Shown here: one piece after another, positions 43,764-58,074 of the stretch | Layout of the letters: the number at the start of each line of letters is the position of its first letter | Position numbering within the stretch: the first letter of the stretch is position 1 | NCBI GenBank assembly: GCA_040220235.1 | Contig: JAVJTO010000088.1 | DNA length: 64,000 bases | Reading direction: 5' to 3' (one strand) | Origin: Coleofasciculus sp. B1-GNL1-01 | Lineage (GTDB): Bacteria; Cyanobacteriota; Cyanobacteriia; Cyanobacteriales; Coleofasciculaceae | The notes under the pieces: model-generated | What the model was told of the DNA's origin: nothing | What the model saw: only the letters and a program-made list of their open reading frames with translations | The model's database searches: none | Position numbers and translations under genes: made by a program

Positions 43764-45091
43764 TCATAATGACTTAGTAACAGGTAGCTTAATTACAAAC
43801 TCTGTTCCTTGAGGATGATGGGAATGACATTGAAGCTGCCCCCCGTGTTTGTCTACAACAATCTGATAGCTAATTGATAATCCTAAACCGGTGCCTTGAC
43901 CGACGGGTTTTGTCGTAAAGAACGGATCAAATATTCGGGATTGAACCTCTGCGTTGATGCCAGCACCGTTGTCAGCAATACGAATAATTATCCAGTTGGG
44001 TTCAACGAATTCCGTGTGAATCCGAATCATCGGAGAAGGTTGAGGATGTGTTTTCGATGTGTCTTGAAAATCCCGCGTTTTTGTTGAAGGTAGTCCTGAT
44101 AAATAGGCAGTATCATGAGCGTCGTCAAGGGCATCAAGGGCATTGCTCAGAATATTCATAAACACTTGATTTAGTTGACCGGGATAACATTTGACTAACG
44201 GCAGTTGACCATAGTCTTTAATCAGTTGAATCGGAGGACGATTTCCCTTTTGGGTCAGTCGATGTTTTAAAATTAGTAGTGTGCTATCAATGCCTTGATG
44301 GAGATTCACCTGCTTACATTTGGCTTCATCAAGTCGGGAAAAGTGGCGTTTGCTCTCGGTGATGTCGGAAAATGAGGTGACAACGGCGTAGGGTTGGCTG
44401 TCTCCGGGATTAAACAGAGGTTGAGAATTCATGCTAATCCAGGTGATTTCATGTCTTTGTTCCTGGCAACCTTGCTGCTTCTGTCGTAATTTCAGCCCTC
44501 CGCTTTTTGCTTTGTTTCCAGCAACAGGTGAGTCGTTCACTGGACAAGGTAGGAGTGATGCTTCAGGTGGGGAAATCCCCATAATTACTCTGACTTGGGG
44601 TTTTCCTGTGCGTAAGGTTACCATCGCGGGATGCTCTTGGCTGGGGAAGGGAGAACCATCTTCCTGAATGATTTGTCCCCCCCAGTTCATCCCGATTTGT
44701 CCGAGTATCTGTTGAGCAGAGCGTCCTAAAATGTTTTCAGCACTGAGATTACAAGCAATAATCTGACCGTCGGCTTGCTGGAGTATAATTCCCTCAGACA
44801 TGGCGGTGACGACGGAACGGTATCGTTGTTCGCTGACTCGTAGTTCTTTCTCTATCCGTTGCCGCTCGATGAGTTCCGCCTGTACTCTAGAATAGAGTTC
44901 CGATTGTTGGAGTGCGATCGCGACTTGGGTGGCTAATTGCTGTAATAGCTCAATTTCGTAGGATTGCCAGTGCCGTTGACTACGACAGTGATGGACGATT
45001 AATAAACCCCAGAGTTTTTCTCCTAAAATAATTGGCACGACTAAGTTGGCGATGACTTGGAAGGGTTTAAGTAACTGGAGATGACAAGGCT
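43764..45091 (-). pseudogene. 3' part of disrupted sensor kinase (half GAF, PAS, HATPase; HisKA missing)
   Basis: PCHLQLL..NLVVPII..LWGLLIVHHC; QLNQVFMNILSNA, DNGAG, FDPFFTTK, GTGLGL; no H-box. Confidence 0.85.
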
Positions 45092-46552
45092 TTGACTTCT
45101 CCCCTGGTTAAAAACGCAGGGGATTCTAAGAGGATACTGCGGGACGGGCTAAAGCCGCGTCCCTCCGTTTCATCTTCTTAGAGTTCCAGAGGAAAACTCT
45201 GGATGGCGCAGTCAAAAACGCCCTACTGACCCTGGCTAGATTGAGACCTAGCTGTATCTCTACTTTGCGGAGGATATTAGCAGCACCGTTAGCATCGGCG
45301 TTGACGAATTCTCCTTTAAGCGTGCGGTACATTCCTCGTTTTACTCGCTTCCCACTAGCCTTCCACCCTTCCGGCTTGGAGCCGAATACAGGTAGAGTAT
45401 CGTTGTCGAGAAAACTAGCTTTAGAGGTATAACTTTCTTCAGTTTCTACGAACTGAATTCCATAGTGTTTGCACAGTTGCTCAATCCTATTTTTGAGACG
45501 GGCGGTAGGAATTTGAACAAACTCTTGATTCGTCTTTTTCCCCAGCTCAATCCCATCTTTATTGTGTCGATTCCAACCGAAAACGACTCTTCCAATTCGA
45601 TGTTGGAGGCAATGGTTGATAACGACACGAGCGGCTTTGTTAACCGCATCTCTTACTTGCCTATTGCGCCTTTCTGTGAGAAAGGCTAATTCTTCATTCC
45701 AAAATCCTTGAGCTTTCCCCAACTTAATGGTTGCCACCCGTTTGTTGTAGAGCTGATTAAGACTCTTTAATTTACGTCCATCAACAATAAAGCTGGTTCC
45801 TACATTAGAAACACAGGTCATCCAGTTGTTGAGTCCGGGGTCGATTCCTATTACCCGTGAGGAGTCTACATCTGCTGTTACAGAAGGCAGGAGGTAGACA
45901 AACTCAGCATAGAAGCAGCCGTTGCGGGGAAGGATTCTCAGCTCTTTGATGTCTTTGAAGGCAAGATTAGATGGCTTATGAATGAAGAAATCCGCTATCT
46001 TGAACCATGTCTTGACTAGCGTTCCTAGCGGTATTCTGATTTGACCATCTTTAATCTTCAAAGCTTGTTTAGGATAACTCACAACAGAAAGACCGCCCTT
46101 CTTTAAATACTTAGGTAGTCTAGGATTGTCCGCTATCTTTCCTTTTCTGAACGCCTTCATCAACCCATCAAACGACTTGAAAGATTCACTAACCGTTCTT
46201 AGCGCTTGTTGAGCTGCCTGAGAATAGAGAGCTTGGAAATGTTTGTTGTTTTTGTACTCCTTTTCTAAGTCATATTTGCCGATAATCCGCCGACACTTAA
46301 ACCAGACTTGACGAGCATAATAAATACCGCAGTTCATTAAGTTATTCGCTTCGGTGCAAATAAACTCTAGAACGGCGGTTAGATCTTGATCTGGATTTAA
46401 TAGTAATTGCTGACAACCGTACAAGAAAATCACCTCCTTGTTTAGGGTTATATTATATCACTTGAAGAAATTATTGCGGGATAAATCCCGCTGTCTTTAC
46501 GACTTGCTCGGTTTCATCCCCCGACGCTCAGTACGGGGGAGCCTGCACCATC
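45092..46552 (-). mobile_element. tnpB-only IS200/IS605 (IS1341-like) element
   Basis: Right-end hairpin TCCCCTG..CAGGGGA + GTCAA ending at 45092; left hairpin TCCCCCG..CGGGGGA near 46517-46540; no tnpA; left boundary approximate. Confidence 0.8.
45126..46424 (-). CDS. tnpB: TnpB RNA-guided nuclease
   Basis: GIDPG, VVFGWN, YTSKASFLD, NADANGAANI; TTG start after AGGAGG. Confidence 0.9.
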   Translation of the reverse strand: MYGCQQLLLNPDQDLTAVLEFICTEANNLMNCGIYYARQVWFKCRRIIGKYDLEKEYKNNKHFQALYSQAAQQALRTVSESFKSFDGLMKAFRKGKIADNPRLPKYLKKGGLSVVSYPKQALKIKDGQIRIPLGTLVKTWFKIADFFIHKPSNLAFKDIKELRILPRNGCFYAEFVYLLPSVTADVDSSRVIGIDPGLNNWMTCVSNVGTSFIVDGRKLKSLNQLYNKRVATIKLGKAQGFWNEELAFLTERRNRQVRDAVNKAARVVINHCLQHRIGRVVFGWNRHNKDGIELGKKTNQEFVQIPTARLKNRIEQLCKHYGIQFVETEESYTSKASFLDNDTLPVFGSKPEGWKASGKRVKRGMYRTLKGEFVNADANGAANILRKVEIQLGLNLARVSRAFLTAPSRVFLWNSKKMKRRDAALARPAVSS

Positions 46553-47372
46553 GCTTATACTGTAAGGCAATTGCCCCGAATAACCGTTCCCGTTGTTGCG
46601 CTGCGACGCGATCGCTGATATCTAGTAGAGTACCGAATAGTTTATGTACCTGACCCTGGGCATTGAAAATTGGTTCTCCTTGGGCGAAAAGATGGCGGAT
46701 AAACCCATCAGGGCGCAGGATACGAAATTCTAGTTGGCAGGATTTCCCCCGAACAAGCTGGTGAACTGTTTTTTTCCAAGCCTTTCTATCATTGCCATGA
46801 ATCGTTTGCCAATGTTCTCTTATGGTGGGTGTGGGTTGTCCTGGAGAGAGTCCATAAATGCGGAAGGTTTCATCGGACCAAGTAATGTTTTGGGTGGCTA
46901 AATCAAATTCCCAGCTTCCCACATGGGCAACTTTTTGAGCTTGGGCAAGGTGGGTTTTTTCCTGCCAGAGTTCCGCTTGGGCTTTTTGACGTTCCTTGAT
47001 TTCGGCTTCGAGTTGGGCGGTGCTGGGGATTGTCAGGGCTTGGGGAAGTAGTCGGACGAGTTCTGCTGCGGTTACTACGGAAATCAGGGCAGTCGAGGCT
47101 TTTATCCAACCGGATAACCAGTAATTCGGATGCCAAAGCGTCCAGATTTCCATAATATGGGTCGTACCACAGGCAATGATGAACCCACTAAATAACCAGA
47201 AAATCCAGTTAAATGGGACATCATTTCTCTTGGTGACAAAATAAGTTAGCGTTAGGGGAATGGAGTAATATGCCAATGCGGTGAGAAAATCAGAGATTAG
47301 GTGTAACCAAACTAATCCCGGCTTCCAGAGGTAGCAATGTCCGTGGGGAATGAAAAATTCTGCCAATACCAT
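46553..47372 (-). pseudogene. 5' part of ethylene-binding-domain sensor kinase (ETR1-type EBD + PAS)
   Basis: SDFLTALAYYSIP..FSGFIIACGTTH; PAS VGSWEFDL..WSDETFRIYG; frame runs into the IS. Confidence 0.85.
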
Positions 47373-51196: not shown

Positions 51197-51577
51197 ATGG
51201 AAATTGAACGCTTTAAACTCTCCAAATCAGCTAAAGACCAACTAACCAAACTCAAACGCTACACTAAAATTGATCAGTGGAATATTCTTTGCCGTTGGGC
51301 GTTTTGTCGTTCCCTGGCGGAACCGACTCAACCTTCACCTGTCCCGATTCCGGCTGACTCGAATGTGGAAATGACATGGCGGGTGTTTGGTGGCGATTTG
51401 GCTGATATTTTGTTAATGGCGCTGAAACAACGCTGTCATAATGATGGTTTAGGGTGTGATAAGGATACTCTTACCAATCAATTTCGCCTTCATCTACATC
51501 GGGGGATTGGGTATTTAGCGGGTGATCCCACGATTAGGAAAATTGAAGATTTTATCGAAATTGCCAATAAGCAATAA
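51197..51577 (+). CDS. dndE: DNA sulfur modification protein DndE
   Basis: LSKSAKDQLTKLKRYTKIDQWNILCRWAFCRSL..SNVEMTWRVFGG..FRLHLHRGIGYL. Confidence 0.92.
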   Translation: MEIERFKLSKSAKDQLTKLKRYTKIDQWNILCRWAFCRSLAEPTQPSPVPIPADSNVEMTWRVFGGDLADILLMALKQRCHNDGLGCDKDTLTNQFRLHLHRGIGYLAGDPTIRKIEDFIEIANKQ

Positions 51578-51700
51578 ATGTTCTTGGTTATTCACCTCTC
51601 TACACCCTTCCATCATGCATGTCTGGTTATTTTCGATGACATTATGTGTGATGTGTTCTGTGTTTGTTAACTCTGTAGGGGCGAGTTAGGGGTTACGGTT

Positions 51701-52599
51701 AATAGGGGTCTACAGGTCGGCACATTTTCCCATGATGAAATAGTACCTAAAATGCGCGATCGCGTCAAGTCCTAATCTTTATTTCTTTCGAGGCGATTAT
51801 CCCTTTATTTGCCATGTTCACCTGCATATCTGAAGAGGTTCATCTGTGAACAAAGGAGATGGAGACAGGGGATGTTGGTGGATTACGGTGGATAGCGAAT
51901 ATAAAGGATTAGTTAGGTCAATTGATTCCTACCTAACCCACCCCACAGGTTCCGGTGAATAGGGGTCTATAGGTCGGCACATTTTCCCATGATGAAATAG
52001 TACCTAAACTTGGCGATCGCGTCAACCCCTAATCTTTTTTCTTTCAGGACAATTATCCCTTTGATGTGCCATGTTCACCTGCATATCTGAAGGATTCATC
52101 TGTGAACAAAGGAGATGAAGCCAGGATTTTGGTGAGTTACTGTGGATAGCGAATATAAAGGATTGGTTTGGTCAATTGATTACCACCTAACCCACCCCAC
52201 AGGTTTCGGTGAATGGGGGTCTACAGGTCGGCACATTTTCCCATGATGAAATAGTACCTAACATTCGCGATCGCGTCAACCCCTAATTCTTATTTCTTTT
52301 GGGGCGATTATCCCTTTGATGTGCCATGTTCACCTGCATATCTGAAGAGGTTCATCTGTGAACAAAGGGGATGAAGACAGGGGATTTTGGTGGATTACTG
52401 TGGATAGCGAATATAAAGGATTAGTTGGGTCAATTGATTACCATCTAGCCCACCCCACAGGTTCTGGTGAATGGGGGTCTATAGGTCGGCACATTTTCCC
52501 ATGATGAAATAGTACCTAAAATGCGCGATCGCGTCAACCCCTAATCCTTATTTCTTTCGAGGCGATTATCCCTTTAATGTGCCATGTTCACCTGAACAT
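51701..52599. repeat. Tandem array of ~256-bp units (3 full + 1 partial)
   Basis: Units start at 51701, 51958, 52212 and 52470 (periods 257/254/258). Confidence 0.95.
51740..52537 (-). promoter_or_regulatory. Four sigma70-like promoters TTGACG-17-TACTAT, one per repeat unit
   Basis: -35/-10 at 51768-63/51745-40, 52025-20/52002-51997, 52279-74/52256-51 and 52537-32/52514-09. Confidence 0.7.
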
Positions 52600-53354: not shown

Positions 53355-53448
53355 GCGCTAAAACCCAAGCCTAGTGGTTAATCGCAAGCCGCAACTGGAA
53401 TATCCTCTACTTGTTCAGGACGTCGCTCACCCCCCTATAGAGAAACCT

Positions 53449-56400
53449 ATGACACAAAAATCATTGCTAGAAATCTTTGAATATATTTCCTTGGCTGGCT
53501 CTGCTGTCGGAACTGTCGTAGCGGCGACATCTCAGCAGGTGGCTTACGCCGCAACGCCGTTAACGGTGGCGCTGGCGCTGAATCTGTTGAACCGACGTAA
53601 CATAATACAGCAGACACAGGATAGCACCAGAAGTGCGATCGGGGAAACCTATCAACTGATTCAATCCCTACATCAACAAGTCCAAGCTATCCCCACGCTG
53701 AATAATCAACTCAATAGCTTAGACCAACAATTTAATGCTCGACCCGAAAAAACGGCAATTGAGGACTTAAAAGCCTCCCTAAGTGAATTAACAGAACAAT
53801 TCACCCAACTGAGTCAAACCTTTAATACTCGCCCGGAACTACAAACCATTGAACAGTTGCAAACCACTGTTGCACAATTGACCGAACAGTTTAATAGCCT
53901 TAGCACTCAGTTCGAGCAGCTACCGACTGAGCCAGAGGTAGACTTAAGTAGCATTGAACAAGCCGTTTTTGAACTAACGGAGCAATTTAGCCAACTCTAT
54001 CAACAATTCCATAGTCGTCCCGAACTTGAGGATATTGAGCAAACTCAGGCGGCGATCGCCCAACTCCATGAACAACTCGGTACTATTACGGTTCGCCTGG
54101 ATCACTTACCTGCATCATCCGAGGTAGACTTAAGTATGCTCGAAGGCGCGATCGCCGAAATTACTAGCCAAGTTGACACCTTAACCACGCAAGTTAACAC
54201 CCTACCCAGCACCAGCGACACTGATCTCACCGGAGTAGACGCCGCACTTTCAGAACTCACCGAGGAATTTAGCCAACTCCAAGAACAGTTCCAGACTCGT
54301 CCAGAACTGCAAACCATCGCCCAACTTAGAGATCACCTTGCAACCTTGACTCATCGCTTAGATGAGTTACCCACCGCACCCCTAACCGACTTAATTAGCG
54401 TCGAAAGTGCGATCGCCGAAATTACCAGTCAAGTTGACACCTTAACCACTCAGGTTAACACCCTACCCAGCGCCAGCGACACTGATCTCACCGGAGTAGA
54501 CGCCGCACTCTCAGAACTTACCGAGGAATTTAGCCAACTCCAAGAACAGTTCCAGACTCGCCCAGAATTACAAATCATTACTGATCTGAGTGAACAACTC
54601 GAAACCCTCAGCACTCGCCTGGATCAACTTCCCACCGCACCAGCGGCTAACTTAAACGGTTTAGAACCCGTTATTGCTCAGATTACCAGTCAAATCGAAA
54701 CCTTAACCGCACGAGTCAATACCCTTCCCCTCTCCGGCGAAACCGATTTCACCGAAATTGAAGAAGCGATCGTCCAAATCCATGGTCAAATTAACACGAT
54801 TCAGCAGCAATTCCAGAATCGCCCTGAACTGCAAATTATTGAGCAATCCCAACGTGCGATCGCAGACCTAAGCGAACAACTCGAAACCCTTAGCCAGCGC
54901 CTGGATCAGCTTCCCACCGTACCCGGCGAAGAGTCAACCGCGATCGCCGAAATTACCCATCAACTAGACAGCTTAACCACTCAGGTAAACACCCTCTCCC
55001 CCGTTTCTGACACCGATTTGCGCGGGATAGAAGGTGCGATCGCGGATATCAGCGAACAACTGGAGACATTAAGCGCACGAGTTGATCATCTCCCCTTAAC
55101 CGCCACCCCCGAAGCCACCGACTTCAGTGAAATCGAAGCCGCGATCATTGATTTTAATCAACAACTGGGTCAACTCCATCAACAATTTACCACCAGACCC
55201 GAACTAGAAACCATTGAGCGATCGCAAACCGAAATTAGCCAGCTTACGGAACAATTTGCCATCCTCAATAGCCGCCTTGACCAACTCCCAACGACATCAG
55301 AGGAAGGCGTGGAACAGGTGATTGGCGAGATTCGGGGTCAAATTGAAACCCTCAGCCAACGAGTTGACCAGCTTTCCCCAGTTTCCCCAACCGATGTCAG
55401 TCAGTTAGAACAAGCCATTACTGACATTACCGCACAAATCGACAACTTAACCCAGCAAGTCAACACCCTCTCTACTCCTTCAGACACCGATCTATTTGAC
55501 GCAGAAGACACCCTGGCTCAAATTCAAAGTCAGATTAACACCCTGAATCGACAGTTCCAGACTCGACCAGAACTTCCAGAACTTGAGCAAACACAAACCG
55601 CGATCGCCCAACTGACGGAGGAACTGGAAACTCTTAGCAACCGCCTGGATCAGTTATCCACAGCACCAGAGGGTGATGGTAATGTCACCGAACAAACCAT
55701 TACTGAGATCACCGATCAGATTGAAACCTTAACCGAACGGGTAAATACCCTATCCACTCCCCCAGACACCGATGTGAGTGGAATCGAAACCGCACTGTCA
55801 GAACTCACTGACCAATTTAGCCAATTCCAGCAACAATTCCAGACTCGTCCAGAACTAGAGGAAATCCAGCAATCTCAAACCGCGATCGCCCAACTGAGTC
55901 AGCAACTGGAAACCCTTACCACGCGCCTGGATCAGTTGTCAACCACACCAGAGGGTGAGGATAGTCTCACTGAACAAACCCTGGTTGAGATTACCCGTCA
56001 AATTGACAGCCTAACCACACAGGTAAATACCCTATCCACCCCTACCGAAACCGATGTCAGTGGCGTTGAAACCGCGCTGTCAGAACTCACTGACCAATTT
56101 AGCCAATTCCAACAACAGTTCCAGACTCGTCCAGAACTAGAGGAAATCCAGCAATCTCAGAATGCGATCGCGGATCTAACTGAACAACTGGACACCCTGA
56201 GTACCCGCCTAACTCAGGTATCGACGACACCAGAGGTAGATCTGAGTGGGATTGAACAAACCATTGCCGAAATTGCGGGTCAAATTGACACCCTAACTCA
56301 ACGAGTGAATACCCTCTCCACTCCCACCGAAACCGATTTGAGTGGGGTAGAAGACTCCCTATCTCAACTAGCGGAACAATTTAGCCAACTCCAGCACCAG

Positions 56401-58074
56401 TTCCAGGAACGTCCAGAACTAGAGGAAATCCAGCAATCCCAAACCGCGATCGCGGATCTAACGCAGCGACTGGAAACCCTGAATATTCGCCTGAATCAGT
56501 TACCTATTGTTCCCGAAGTCGATCTGAGTGGGATTGAACAAACCATTGGCGAAATTACGGGTCAAGTTGAAACCTTAACCGAACGGGTGAATACCCTCTC
56601 CACTCCCACCGAAACCGATTTGAGTAGCGTCGAAGCGGCGCTGTTTGATTTAACTGAACAAGTCAGTCAACTTCAGCAACAATTCCAGGAACGTCCAGAA
56701 CTAGAGGAAATCCAGCAATCCCAACGTGCGATCGCGGATCTGACTCAACAACTGGACACCCTGAGTACCCGCCTAACTCAGTTACCGACAACGCCAGACG
56801 TCGATCGGAGTGCGACGGAACAAACCATTGCCGAGATTACCGATCAGATTGAAACCTTAACCGAACGGGTAAATACATTATCCACTCCCACAGCACCCGA
56901 TCAAAGCGGAATCGAAGCTGCACTTTCGGAACTCGCGGAACAATTAAGCCAACTCCAGCAACAGTTCCAGAATCGTCCGGAACTCCAGGAGATGGAACAG
57001 TCGCAAATCATGATTAGTCAACTGGCTGAACAACTGGAGATACTGACGAATCAGCTTGATCAAACCTCAGCGACGCCGGGAGTCGATTTGATGGAAATCG
57101 GATCAGCGATCGTTGATGTTCATGATCGCCTGGATCAACTAACGGCGCGTTTCGAGCAATTTCCGGGGACACCCGACACCGAACCCGCACCGATTCAACC
57201 CACCCTTACCGATTTAGTCGAAGAGGAGGTTGTTGCACCTCCGCCTCCCATCCCCACAATCCCCGCACTGGAACAAATTCAGCAACTTCCCGAAAATGAG
57301 GCGATCGCACCGCTTACGGATAAGCTAAAATCCCTGAACGAACAGTTTCACAATCAGCCTGCGACTCAAGCGGTTGAGGGATTAAAAATGACGCTGATTC
57401 AGTTAACGGATCACGTCAACATAATCACATCTCGTTTGGGAGGTTTACCGACAACGCCAGACCTAGATCTGAGTGGGTTAGAACAAGCGATTACCGAGGT
57501 TCACACCCAACTCGACGCCTTCAATCAACAGTTTAATGCACGACCGGAAGTTCAAGCCATTGAGCAATTGCAAGAGGCGATCAATCAGCTAGGTGAGCAG
57601 ATTTATACCACCCTGGTGCAATTTACTGAAGACTCGGAATCAATGTCCAAGAAGGAAAAAGATGACGCCCTCAAGGATATCGATTTCCAGTTAGATGCGA
57701 TGGAGTTGTGTCTAGAGAACCTACCCATGCTGGCTGACTTAGACTTCAGTGGGGTGGAAGGAGCGATCGCCGCGATCGACGAACAGCTTGACAATCTAAC
57801 TCAAACCATCGCCGAGAATCAAGCTGCACTCTTTGAAGTGGATCTCAGCGGTGGAGAGGAGGCGATCGAAGACATTAATCGTCAGATTGAGGCGCTCAAT
57901 CAAAAAATCAGTTCCCAATTAGATAAAGCGACGATAAAACAATTGGAAGACGCGATCGTTCATCTGAAAAAACAGCTTAATGCGGTTACGTTTACTTTAG
58001 AAACACTACCCGTGGCGTCCGATGATATGGACTTCGGTGGAGAAGAACCAGACATCGCTGATTTACAGTGGTGA
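53449..58074 (+). CDS. Giant acidic coiled-coil repeat protein with N-terminal hydrophobic hairpin
   Basis: 14 F..RPE(L) motifs; exact 282-nt (94-aa) period at 55741/56023/56305/56587/56869. Confidence 0.85.
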   Translation: MTQKSLLEIFEYISLAGSAVGTVVAATSQQVAYAATPLTVALALNLLNRRNIIQQTQDSTRSAIGETYQLIQSLHQQVQAIPTLNNQLNSLDQQFNARPEKTAIEDLKASLSELTEQFTQLSQTFNTRPELQTIEQLQTTVAQLTEQFNSLSTQFEQLPTEPEVDLSSIEQAVFELTEQFSQLYQQFHSRPELEDIEQTQAAIAQLHEQLGTITVRLDHLPASSEVDLSMLEGAIAEITSQVDTLTTQVNTLPSTSDTDLTGVDAALSELTEEFSQLQEQFQTRPELQTIAQLRDHLATLTHRLDELPTAPLTDLISVESAIAEITSQVDTLTTQVNTLPSASDTDLTGVDAALSELTEEFSQLQEQFQTRPELQIITDLSEQLETLSTRLDQLPTAPAANLNGLEPVIAQITSQIETLTARVNTLPLSGETDFTEIEEAIVQIHGQINTIQQQFQNRPELQIIEQSQRAIADLSEQLETLSQRLDQLPTVPGEESTAIAEITHQLDSLTTQVNTLSPVSDTDLRGIEGAIADISEQLETLSARVDHLPLTATPEATDFSEIEAAIIDFNQQLGQLHQQFTTRPELETIERSQTEISQLTEQFAILNSRLDQLPTTSEEGVEQVIGEIRGQIETLSQRVDQLSPVSPTDVSQLEQAITDITAQIDNLTQQVNTLSTPSDTDLFDAEDTLAQIQSQINTLNRQFQTRPELPELEQTQTAIAQLTEELETLSNRLDQLSTAPEGDGNVTEQTITEITDQIETLTERVNTLSTPPDTDVSGIETALSELTDQFSQFQQQFQTRPELEEIQQSQTAIAQLSQQLETLTTRLDQLSTTPEGEDSLTEQTLVEITRQIDSLTTQVNTLSTPTETDVSGVETALSELTDQFSQFQQQFQTRPELEEIQQSQNAIADLTEQLDTLSTRLTQVSTTPEVDLSGIEQTIAEIAGQIDTLTQRVNTLSTPTETDLSGVEDSLSQLAEQFSQLQHQFQERPELEEIQQSQTAIADLTQRLETLNIRLNQLPIVPEVDLSGIEQTIGEITGQVETLTERVNTLSTPTETDLSSVEAALFDLTEQVSQLQQQFQERPELEEIQQSQRAIADLTQQLDTLSTRLTQLPTTPDVDRSATEQTIAEITDQIETLTERVNTLSTPTAPDQSGIEAALSELAEQLSQLQQQFQNRPELQEMEQSQIMISQLAEQLEILTNQLDQTSATPGVDLMEIGSAIVDVHDRLDQLTARFEQFPGTPDTEPAPIQPTLTDLVEEEVVAPPPPIPTIPALEQIQQLPENEAIAPLTDKLKSLNEQFHNQPATQAVEGLKMTLIQLTDHVNIITSRLGGLPTTPDLDLSGLEQAITEVHTQLDAFNQQFNARPEVQAIEQLQEAINQLGEQIYTTLVQFTEDSESMSKKEKDDALKDIDFQLDAMELCLENLPMLADLDFSGVEGAIAAIDEQLDNLTQTIAENQAALFEVDLSGGEEAIEDINRQIEALNQKISSQLDKATIKQLEDAIVHLKKQLNAVTFTLETLPVASDDMDFGGEEPDIADLQW

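Follow-up and report, generated by a model that had tools for sequence, protein, structure and literature searches.

A dispersed promoter-plus-block module, tandemly amplified behind dndE, as a candidate small-RNA family of cyanobacteria

What does a tandem array of promoter-like units, pointing at a gene for DNA phosphorothioation, do in a cyanobacterial genome? We addressed this question in a window of 64,000 nucleotides (the whole stretch of DNA that was analysed) from Coleofasciculus sp. B1-GNL1-01 (assembly GCA_040220235.1, contig JAVJTO010000088.1), in which the initial annotation had described promoter-plus-RNA cassettes firing toward an orphan dndE. The array is one local tandem amplification of a dispersed module composed of a promoter and a short conserved block.

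The array behind dndE and the parts of its unit

The dndE gene (positions 51197 to 51577, plus strand) encodes a protein of 126 aa (PF08870, E 1.5e-43; TIGR03184, 134.9 bits with a cut-off of 71.85) and, with a single tblastn match, is the only one in the genome. The description as an orphan holds for the window locus, where dndE is solitary, but not for the genome, which has a full dndD on contig C105, behind an ORF that we take to be dndC-like. A second, weaker DndD-like ATPase (167.7 bits, below the cut-off) is encoded at G000:C53:19844-21790 (L228). On the other side of the array, a divergent neighbour (53374 to 58074, plus strand) encodes a repetitive, coiled-coil-like protein of 1566 aa, which is built from 261- and 282-bp repeats and matched no family above cut-off except for short spurious matches. 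Farther away in the window, an IS605-type TnpB gene (45126 to 46433; PF01385, PF07282) lies between two sensor-like ORFs, one with an ethylene-receptor-like N-terminal and PAS region (46497 to 47372) and the other of the GAF-PAS-histidine-kinase type (43764 to 45038), as if it had been inserted into one sensor kinase gene.

Tandem Repeats Finder places the array at 51691 to 52594 (no strand assigned), with 3.5 units of 254 to 258 bp (period 258, 90% matches) and start-to-start distances of 257, 254 and 258, in agreement with the tandem repetition of about 256 bp that had been claimed. Four sites of the form TTGACG-N17-TACTAT are found on the minus strand, with −35 starts at 52537, 52279, 52025 and 51768, and a 23-nt block begins 7 nt behind the −10 in all four units. 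The first copy of this module occupies 52480 to 52537 (−35 at 52537-52532, −10 at 52514-52509, predicted +1 at 52502, block at 52502-52480), the second 52222 to 52279 (−10 ending at 52251, predicted +1 at 52244, block at 52244-52222), the third 51968 to 52025 (−10 ending at 51997, predicted +1 at 51990, block at 51990-51968), and the fourth, which has a unique tail behind it, 51711 to 51768 (−10 ending at 51740, predicted +1 at 51733), all on the minus strand; the predicted +1 sites coincide with the starts proposed initially. The window contains 4 matches to the combined promoter-plus-block pattern, and 100 shuffles contain none. Matches to the sigma70 consensus number 11, as against 8.4 ± 3.0 in shuffles, so that such a match alone is no evidence here.

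Among the four copies, identity is 100% at the −35, the −10 and positions −6 to −1, 97% in the block, 87% in the spacer and 72% to 87% in the flanks. The invariant promoter elements and spacing and the nearly invariant downstream block of the initial annotation were thereby confirmed; its variable spacer is variable in the middle only, the first 7 and the last 5 letters being invariant.

Searches against the own genome with BLAST and nhmmer resolve the array unit into two dispersed parts, namely, the promoter-plus-block module and a repetitive extragenic palindrome (REP) of the GTAG type. Decayed REP copies of about 70 nt lie on the minus strand behind the first (52389 to 52458, matching the dispersed family), second (52131 to 52200) and third (51877 to 51946) module copies, with limits read from the sequences. 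The 15-nt REP head is present in 92 copies in the genome at no more than 1 mismatch, 9 of them with the block upstream. The window copies carry GTGG instead of GTAG, and the units of congeners retain GTAG. Hence, of the REP-like hairpin that had been claimed, the GTAG-type REP is there, but its window copies are decayed and the predicted array RNAs, over their first 120 nt, fold no better than shuffles (z of +0.96, +1.02, +0.78 and −0.33). A scan for terminator-like sites found none within the array.

GTAG-headed palindromic REPs are an ordinary type, and the sections available of an earlier study describe REP clusters that are repeated in tandem together with their flanking DNA (PMC3733652). 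The GTAG head, the palindrome and the many extragenic copies characterise the second element of our unit only: this element, a GTAG-headed palindrome of a family of about 90 copies, resembles such REPs also in its tandem reiteration with flanking DNA, whereas the promoter-plus-block module lacks a folding palindrome, is mostly REP-free and forms arrays without the REP. GTAGGG is absent from the three tandem units checked at other loci, so the REP is dispensable for tandem arrays; it is a passenger in the unit of the window.

Two further classes of repeats were considered for the array and rejected. A CRISPR array, which had already been denied, does not fit units that are alike throughout (about 90%), and no cas family is represented among the 16 ORFs between 41.5 and 63.7 kb, TnpB aside. 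In type I toxin-antitoxin repeats, such as Ldr/Rdl and Ibs/Sib, each unit has a small hydrophobic ORF opposite the RNA; six-frame translation of the array gives only short ORFs, none of which is both hydrophobic and conserved across units.

Conservation and distribution of the module

The module spans about 60 bp, comprising the −35, the −10 and then the 23-nt block (consensus RTGGRAAAATRTGYSNNCMTRTA), and is present in 34 copies at 19 loci of the own genome (45.5% GC, with 7011 GCGATCGC sites). The strict block pattern has 25 matches in the genome, with none in the reversed genome and none for three shuffles of the block. To avoid circularity, the block was searched alone and its upstream side inspected afterwards, a promoter being counted when a same-strand −10 accompanied by a −35 or an extended −10 ended 5 to 9 nt before +1. 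By this promoter-blind procedure, a promoter was found at all 25 copies of the own genome and at 26 of 27 full-length distinct copies from four other genera (5 genomes; 30 of 33 matches retrieved, 28 of them distinct, of which one was truncated at the end of its contig). The opposite side of the block had a promoter in 0 of 25 own copies and 0 of 28 from the other genera, and the background was 0.9% at random positions and 1.7% in AT-rich DNA. Because the promoter stands at a fixed spacing even when the block is found blind to it, the block most likely marks the 5′ end of a predicted transcript, and the reading of the unit as a promoter with a 5′ block is borne out.

When one copy is taken from each of the 19 own loci, identity is 0.85 in the block and 0.55 to 0.60 in the spacer and flanks, and the conservation ends sharply at +23, downstream of which identity drops to background. 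The initial annotation had named missing preferential conservation of the −35, −10 and 5′ block in homologs as an outcome that would count against it; the homologs came out in its favour. Copies without TTGAC mostly have an extended −10 (Fisher p 0.019 in fixed register, for copies that are not independent). At the genus level, five of the frequent changes are A/G exchanges in the sense strand, at +1, +5, +11, +21 and +24, as might be expected if the block paired with a partner that does not vary. A separate observation is the almost invariant A at −3 (103 of 105 genus copies and 70 of 72 outside), the neighbouring positions of which vary. All 6 genomes compared at one orthologous locus have an identical block amid flanks with substitutions and indels, and two other loci retain the block in 5 of 6 and 4 of 4 genomes; at further orthologous loci, the module is present in only 2 of 6 genomes (plus one damaged copy) and in 1 of 6. 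This comparison indicates that the module is under selection where it is retained, yet is gained and lost.

The distribution was assessed mainly with a sequence-only covariance model (R1) built from 63 module copies; this model and most of the patterns derive from the family's own sequences, so column conservation in pattern-found sets is partly circular. Each of the 8 congeneric genomes has 29 to 49 model matches, counts which are partly circular because copies of the congeners were in the model. Within the order, 34 of 121 genomes, belonging to 24 of 71 genera, gave matches, a set that includes a few weak matches looking false or partial (L063, L069 and L071). In another family, 24 of 61 genomes have matches, with one copy in some genera, 6 to 15 in one genus and none detected in several. 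The exact genus-type pattern matches just 3 of 401 genomes of the phylum, and the module sequence thus drifts between genera. A looser promoter-plus-block pattern retrieved 111 loci from the GTDB collection, of which 110 bear cyanobacterial titles and 1 that of an uncultured bacterium; the closest units among named records are from Coleofasciculus, and the record titles include mat formers and Arthrospira/Limnospira. Some loci carry unusual arrangements. L074:1445-1563 has a pair of module-like promoters in head-on orientation whose 3′ parts overlap, L069 and L071 each have a 5′ half and, behind it, the inverted copy of that half, and the module at L076:169-1552 is interrupted in mid-block by a transposase ORF, the first block half being repeated on both sides.

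The array had not been recognised initially as a described system, and Rfam returned a single chance match for the window stretch (snR75, E 0.3, under the gathering score) and another one for 20 further module loci. Searches of the open literature, including searches with the block sequence itself, yielded no description of the module, the sequence matches being to unrelated animal and plant papers, and six spellings of the motif are absent from 6 supplementary files of PMC4734099. The module is real, widespread and selected, and apparently undescribed.

Alternative readings of the block and its loci

The main rival to an RNA is a promoter bound by a repressor. The block would then serve as an operator in the DNA, or else as initially transcribed sequence, with a repressor on +1 to +23 of a near-consensus promoter; the module would be a portable regulated promoter that fires into its neighbours, sense or antisense, the RNA being irrelevant. 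We consider this unlikely, although it deserves more weight than any other alternative. The block lies right behind the −10, where repressor operators also lie, it has neither a conserved 3′ end nor a fold, and its imperfect dyad, ATRTG-N4-CAYAT at +9 to +22, is near perfect in some genera. Within the genus, however, the dyad is broken (+12/+19 are T/C in 100 of 102 copies), and changes at +9 and +10 in other genera are not mirrored at +22 and +21. Nor was an inversion or displacement of the block relative to the promoter seen in the promoter-blind set. The orientation of the neighbouring genes is likewise divided. Among the 29 of 34 own copies examined, the next ORF of at least 100 aa is co-directional in 12, as an operator would predict, convergent in 16 and absent in 1; the copies that face the 3′ end of a gene and the gene-less tandem copies are hard to fit into a regulon. 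By-eye comparison gave no fit of the block to the known LexA, NtcA, CRP and HetR boxes.

A second alternative concerns the loci rather than the block. Tandem amplification of the module is recurrent, with locus-specific bodies: another locus of the own genome has four tandem units of 276 bp with an unrelated body, congeners have units of 255 bp in seven and six copies and of about 325 bp in three, again with unrelated bodies, and module pairs 166 to 238 bp apart are present in three other genera. Arrays of 255 bp are located at L034:1950-3550 (7 copies), L041:1430-2260 (4 copies) and L252:1200-2510 (6 copies), each right after a gene that is presumably restriction-modification-like. In one subfamily, a module-headed repeat of about 330 bp (−76 to +254) separates toxin-antitoxin and XisH/XisI cassettes, which occur in both orientations and in an order that differs among six genomes, and neighbouring empty units at these loci are 321 to 324 bp apart. 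The cassette ORFs of congeners are those that we take to be of the toxin-antitoxin and XisH/XisI types; the own copies were assigned by family search. At loci L031, L032, L033, L035, L040 and L013, the repeat of about 330 bp stands between small cassettes of the toxin-antitoxin type, the order of which changes from congener to congener, with flanking genes that vary by genome. One flank of the congener cassette arrays is a gene that we assume to be phage-baseplate-like.

These loci raise the possibility that the module is a recombination-prone or hitch-hiking boundary repeat, integron- or REP/BIME-like, that captures small cassettes, the dndE array being a row of empty cassettes. Apart from the variable cassettes and the adjacent empty units, this view is favoured by the break of synteny directly behind the last block in the congener G003, by the described tandem reiteration of REP clusters with flanking DNA (PMC3733652, as far as its accessible text goes) and by toxin-antitoxin-type or nuclease genes near 10 of the 18 other own loci. 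REP-only control loci are also near such genes, in 5 of 20 cases, a comparison made over unequal windows and without a statistic (47 of 67 ORFs in the test set and 64 of 64 in the control, with test windows chosen after the genes had been seen).

Integrons are defined by cassettes with attC hairpins and a linked integrase. The module loci share with integron cassette arrays a repeated non-coding element between toxin-antitoxin cassettes in shuffled order, in one subfamily, but differ in having a promoter per repeat and both cassette orientations, and in lacking an attC-like hairpin and an adjacent integrase. Indeed, positions −20 to +26 of 50 copies, folded as DNA, gave no attC-like hairpin on either strand (mean z of −0.06 and +0.23); the two PF00589 (tyrosine recombinase) matches fall on C127 and C135, contigs that carry no module; and of the 13 Y1-transposase matches in the genome, none is close to a module. 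Homology at the cassette loci ends at the edges of the long repeats, not at one fixed base of the block. Given these edges, and with neither hairpin nor adjacent integrase or Y1 transposase, homologous recombination between long repeats is enough to account for duplication and shuffling, and probably produced them. A recombination site, moreover, would not require almost all copies to carry a promoter at a set distance, and the module has 0 matches in viral contigs (2 patterns) and plasmids. We therefore regard a boundary-repeat role as improbable.

Still less probable is a leaderless mini-mRNA, on which ribosomes would load at the first codon to make a 7-residue peptide, M-G/E-K-C/Y-A/V-x-L. 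The first three letters of the block, left free in the pattern, are ATG or GTG in 27 of 28 promoter-blind copies, 104 of 105 genus-level copies have an in-frame TAG or TAA at codon 8, and the exchanges at +15 and +21 are synonymous. Outside the genus, however, 39 of 72 copies have no such stop, and in the genus-level copies third positions are frozen (AAA in 105 of 105, T at +12 in 105 of 105 and C at +18 in 104 of 105), which shows that the block is not a conserved peptide; furthermore, codon 6 varies freely at its first two letters and several copies lack the in-frame start.

The relation to dndE, which raised the question, proved to be one of position. Of the 9 genomes in the genus, 8 have the block behind dndE, with copy numbers from 1 to 6: 4 in the own genome, 6 in G006, at least 3 in G002, 1 each in G004 and G008, and, at contig ends, at least 1 each in G001, G005 and G007. 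In the congener G003, a six-copy array stays with the coiled-coil gene and dndE is on another contig, with no block behind it in the 4 kb examined. The 18 other module loci of the own genome adjoin unrelated genes and no dnd gene, and DndE is encoded by 31 of 31 genomes with the module and by 22 of 25 genomes without a detected one. Copy number and linkage to dndE in relatives had been proposed initially as a check; with 34 copies spread over 19 own loci and six G003 copies away from the gene, a system aimed at dndE is not supported. The module is separable from dndE, and its placement there is likely incidental. That the array is a source of cis-antisense RNA tuning dndE, and hence DNA phosphorothioation, is very hard to maintain, for although the claimed convergence is real (array on the minus strand, dndE on the plus strand, the nearest predicted +1 just 156 nt from its stop) and recurs across the genus, the link is missing in G003 and at the 18 other loci, DndE does without a detected module in most genomes of that set, module matches in other genera lie far from dndE, three of the four promoters stand 400 to 900 nt away from the gene, and no complement of the block is present within it. 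The module provides no new control of DNA phosphorothioation. In a different family, the module at L054:18-1560 precedes by about 120 nt a helicase ORF, presumably of the phosphorothioation-associated restriction type.

A candidate family of sibling small RNAs

The reading that we favour, at a probability of roughly 45%, is an undescribed, very-high-copy family of sibling small RNAs. Each module copy would fire a short non-coding RNA from its predicted sigma70-type promoter; the working part of this RNA would be the unstructured 23-nt 5′ block, which would bind a protein or RNA partner and so act in trans, and tandem amplification would raise the RNA dose. From the claim of an amplified array of small-RNA or antisense units, the amplified promoter-plus-block units remain, but not an antisense system directed at dndE. 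As in known sibling small RNAs, the copies are related, each with a predicted promoter, and share a conserved seed-like block.

The sequencing runs at hand bear on copy number rather than on transcription. Eight metatranscriptome runs contained 9% to 13% of the words searched. Five RNA runs, four of them mapped on the window and four on a single-copy locus, gave a flat depth of 210 to 340 over genes and intergenic DNA; the runs consist of contigs of up to 78 kb, and summed depth on the block, about 28 to 38 times the baseline, equals the copy number. Since the runs behave like DNA, they are uninformative on starts and levels, and a gap in the cover of dndE is meaningless.

The candidate RNA appears to be unstructured in its conserved part. 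Folding of the block and module gave a mean z of about 0 and an empty RNAalifold consensus, and neither strand formed a hairpin, whether treated as DNA or as RNA. The covariation that had been put forward as a check did not emerge, the top mutual-information pairs not being complementary partners, and a 5-bp stem at +9 to +22 is not maintained by compensating changes. A search for a terminator or a conserved 3′ end at a fixed distance found neither. In a search of the start regions of 5735 ORFs for targets, the best duplex had an energy of −26.1, against −21.8 to −23.9 in shuffles (n = 5, on half the ORF set), but the duplexes at ranks 10 and 50 did not exceed the shuffle range or fell short of it, so that no target was singled out; the best match, on C91, has 16 pairs over the start codon and depends on the variable letters at +16/+17. 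No complement of the block outside the module was found in the genome at up to 1 mismatch.

In layout, the array resembles two described cyanobacterial arrays. NsiR1 of Nostoc sp. PCC 7120 is an RNA of about 60 nt with known targets; its 12 tandem copies are confined to a single locus, which lies upstream of hetF, and are driven by heterocyst promoters of the DIF1 type, according to the portion of the source at hand (PMC9045159). Both arrays consist of short tandem units with their own promoters, the end copy of which overlaps or faces a neighbour. Unlike NsiR1 as depicted in that portion, the module family has a sigma70 consensus promoter, 29 to 49 copies, many loci and only 23 nt shared among its copies. 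Identity with NsiR1 was rejected by location and promoter, the array having dndE and the coiled-coil gene as neighbours and TTGACG-N17-TACTAT as promoter.

In Trichodesmium erythraeum IMS101, the array ncf103766-ncf109467 comprises seven repeats of 736 to 973 bp giving RNAs of about 260 nt, with mapped starts and 44.7% of the primary reads, and is convergent with Tery_0080; its units carry a duplicated gene end, and the accessible parts of the paper report no similarity elsewhere (PMC4143802). Its function is given as not known in the passages of both papers on it (PMC4143802; PMC6596454). As far as these descriptions go, the two arrays share tandem promoter-plus-RNA units convergent with the gene behind, but the window units are of 254 to 258 bp and those of Trichodesmium much longer, with the gene end. 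A 30-nt Trichodesmium probe, which alone entered the comparison, scored 14 and 17 on the window array, no better than shuffles with their mean of 15.7, and in 61 genomes searched of that family no set of seven model matches about 970 bp apart was found.

Among sibling small RNAs of other bacteria, OmrA/B, Qrr1-5 and csRNA1-5 are examples, the review table listing 2 to 6 siblings, and the first 21 nt are common to OmrA and OmrB, in the excerpts consulted of that review (PMC4211561). The module family resembles such siblings, as they appear there, in having several related genes, tandem and distal, and differs in its tens of copies, purine-rich block and lack of a common terminator.

A wider extrapolation is doubtful. 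It would make the block an RNA tag of 23 nt, spread across the cyanobacteria with its own promoter, repeatedly amplified in tandem and reaching copy numbers (30 to 50 per genome) that rank with the highest of any known small-RNA family. In one genus the tag would double as the joint of an integrase-free toxin-antitoxin cassette array, all joints firing the same RNA, and it would plausibly counter RNA-cleaving toxins or phage proteins as a decoy or antidote.

Were the block an operator, it would point to an unknown regulon and its repressor. If the RNA is real, the module would represent an undescribed small-RNA family across many filamentous cyanobacterial genera, with copy numbers far above the 2 to 12 of the sibling families compared here. 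The module family also gives a defined 23-nt element, genera with a single copy and cultivable hosts in which the role of tandem promoter-RNA arrays in cyanobacteria may be approached.
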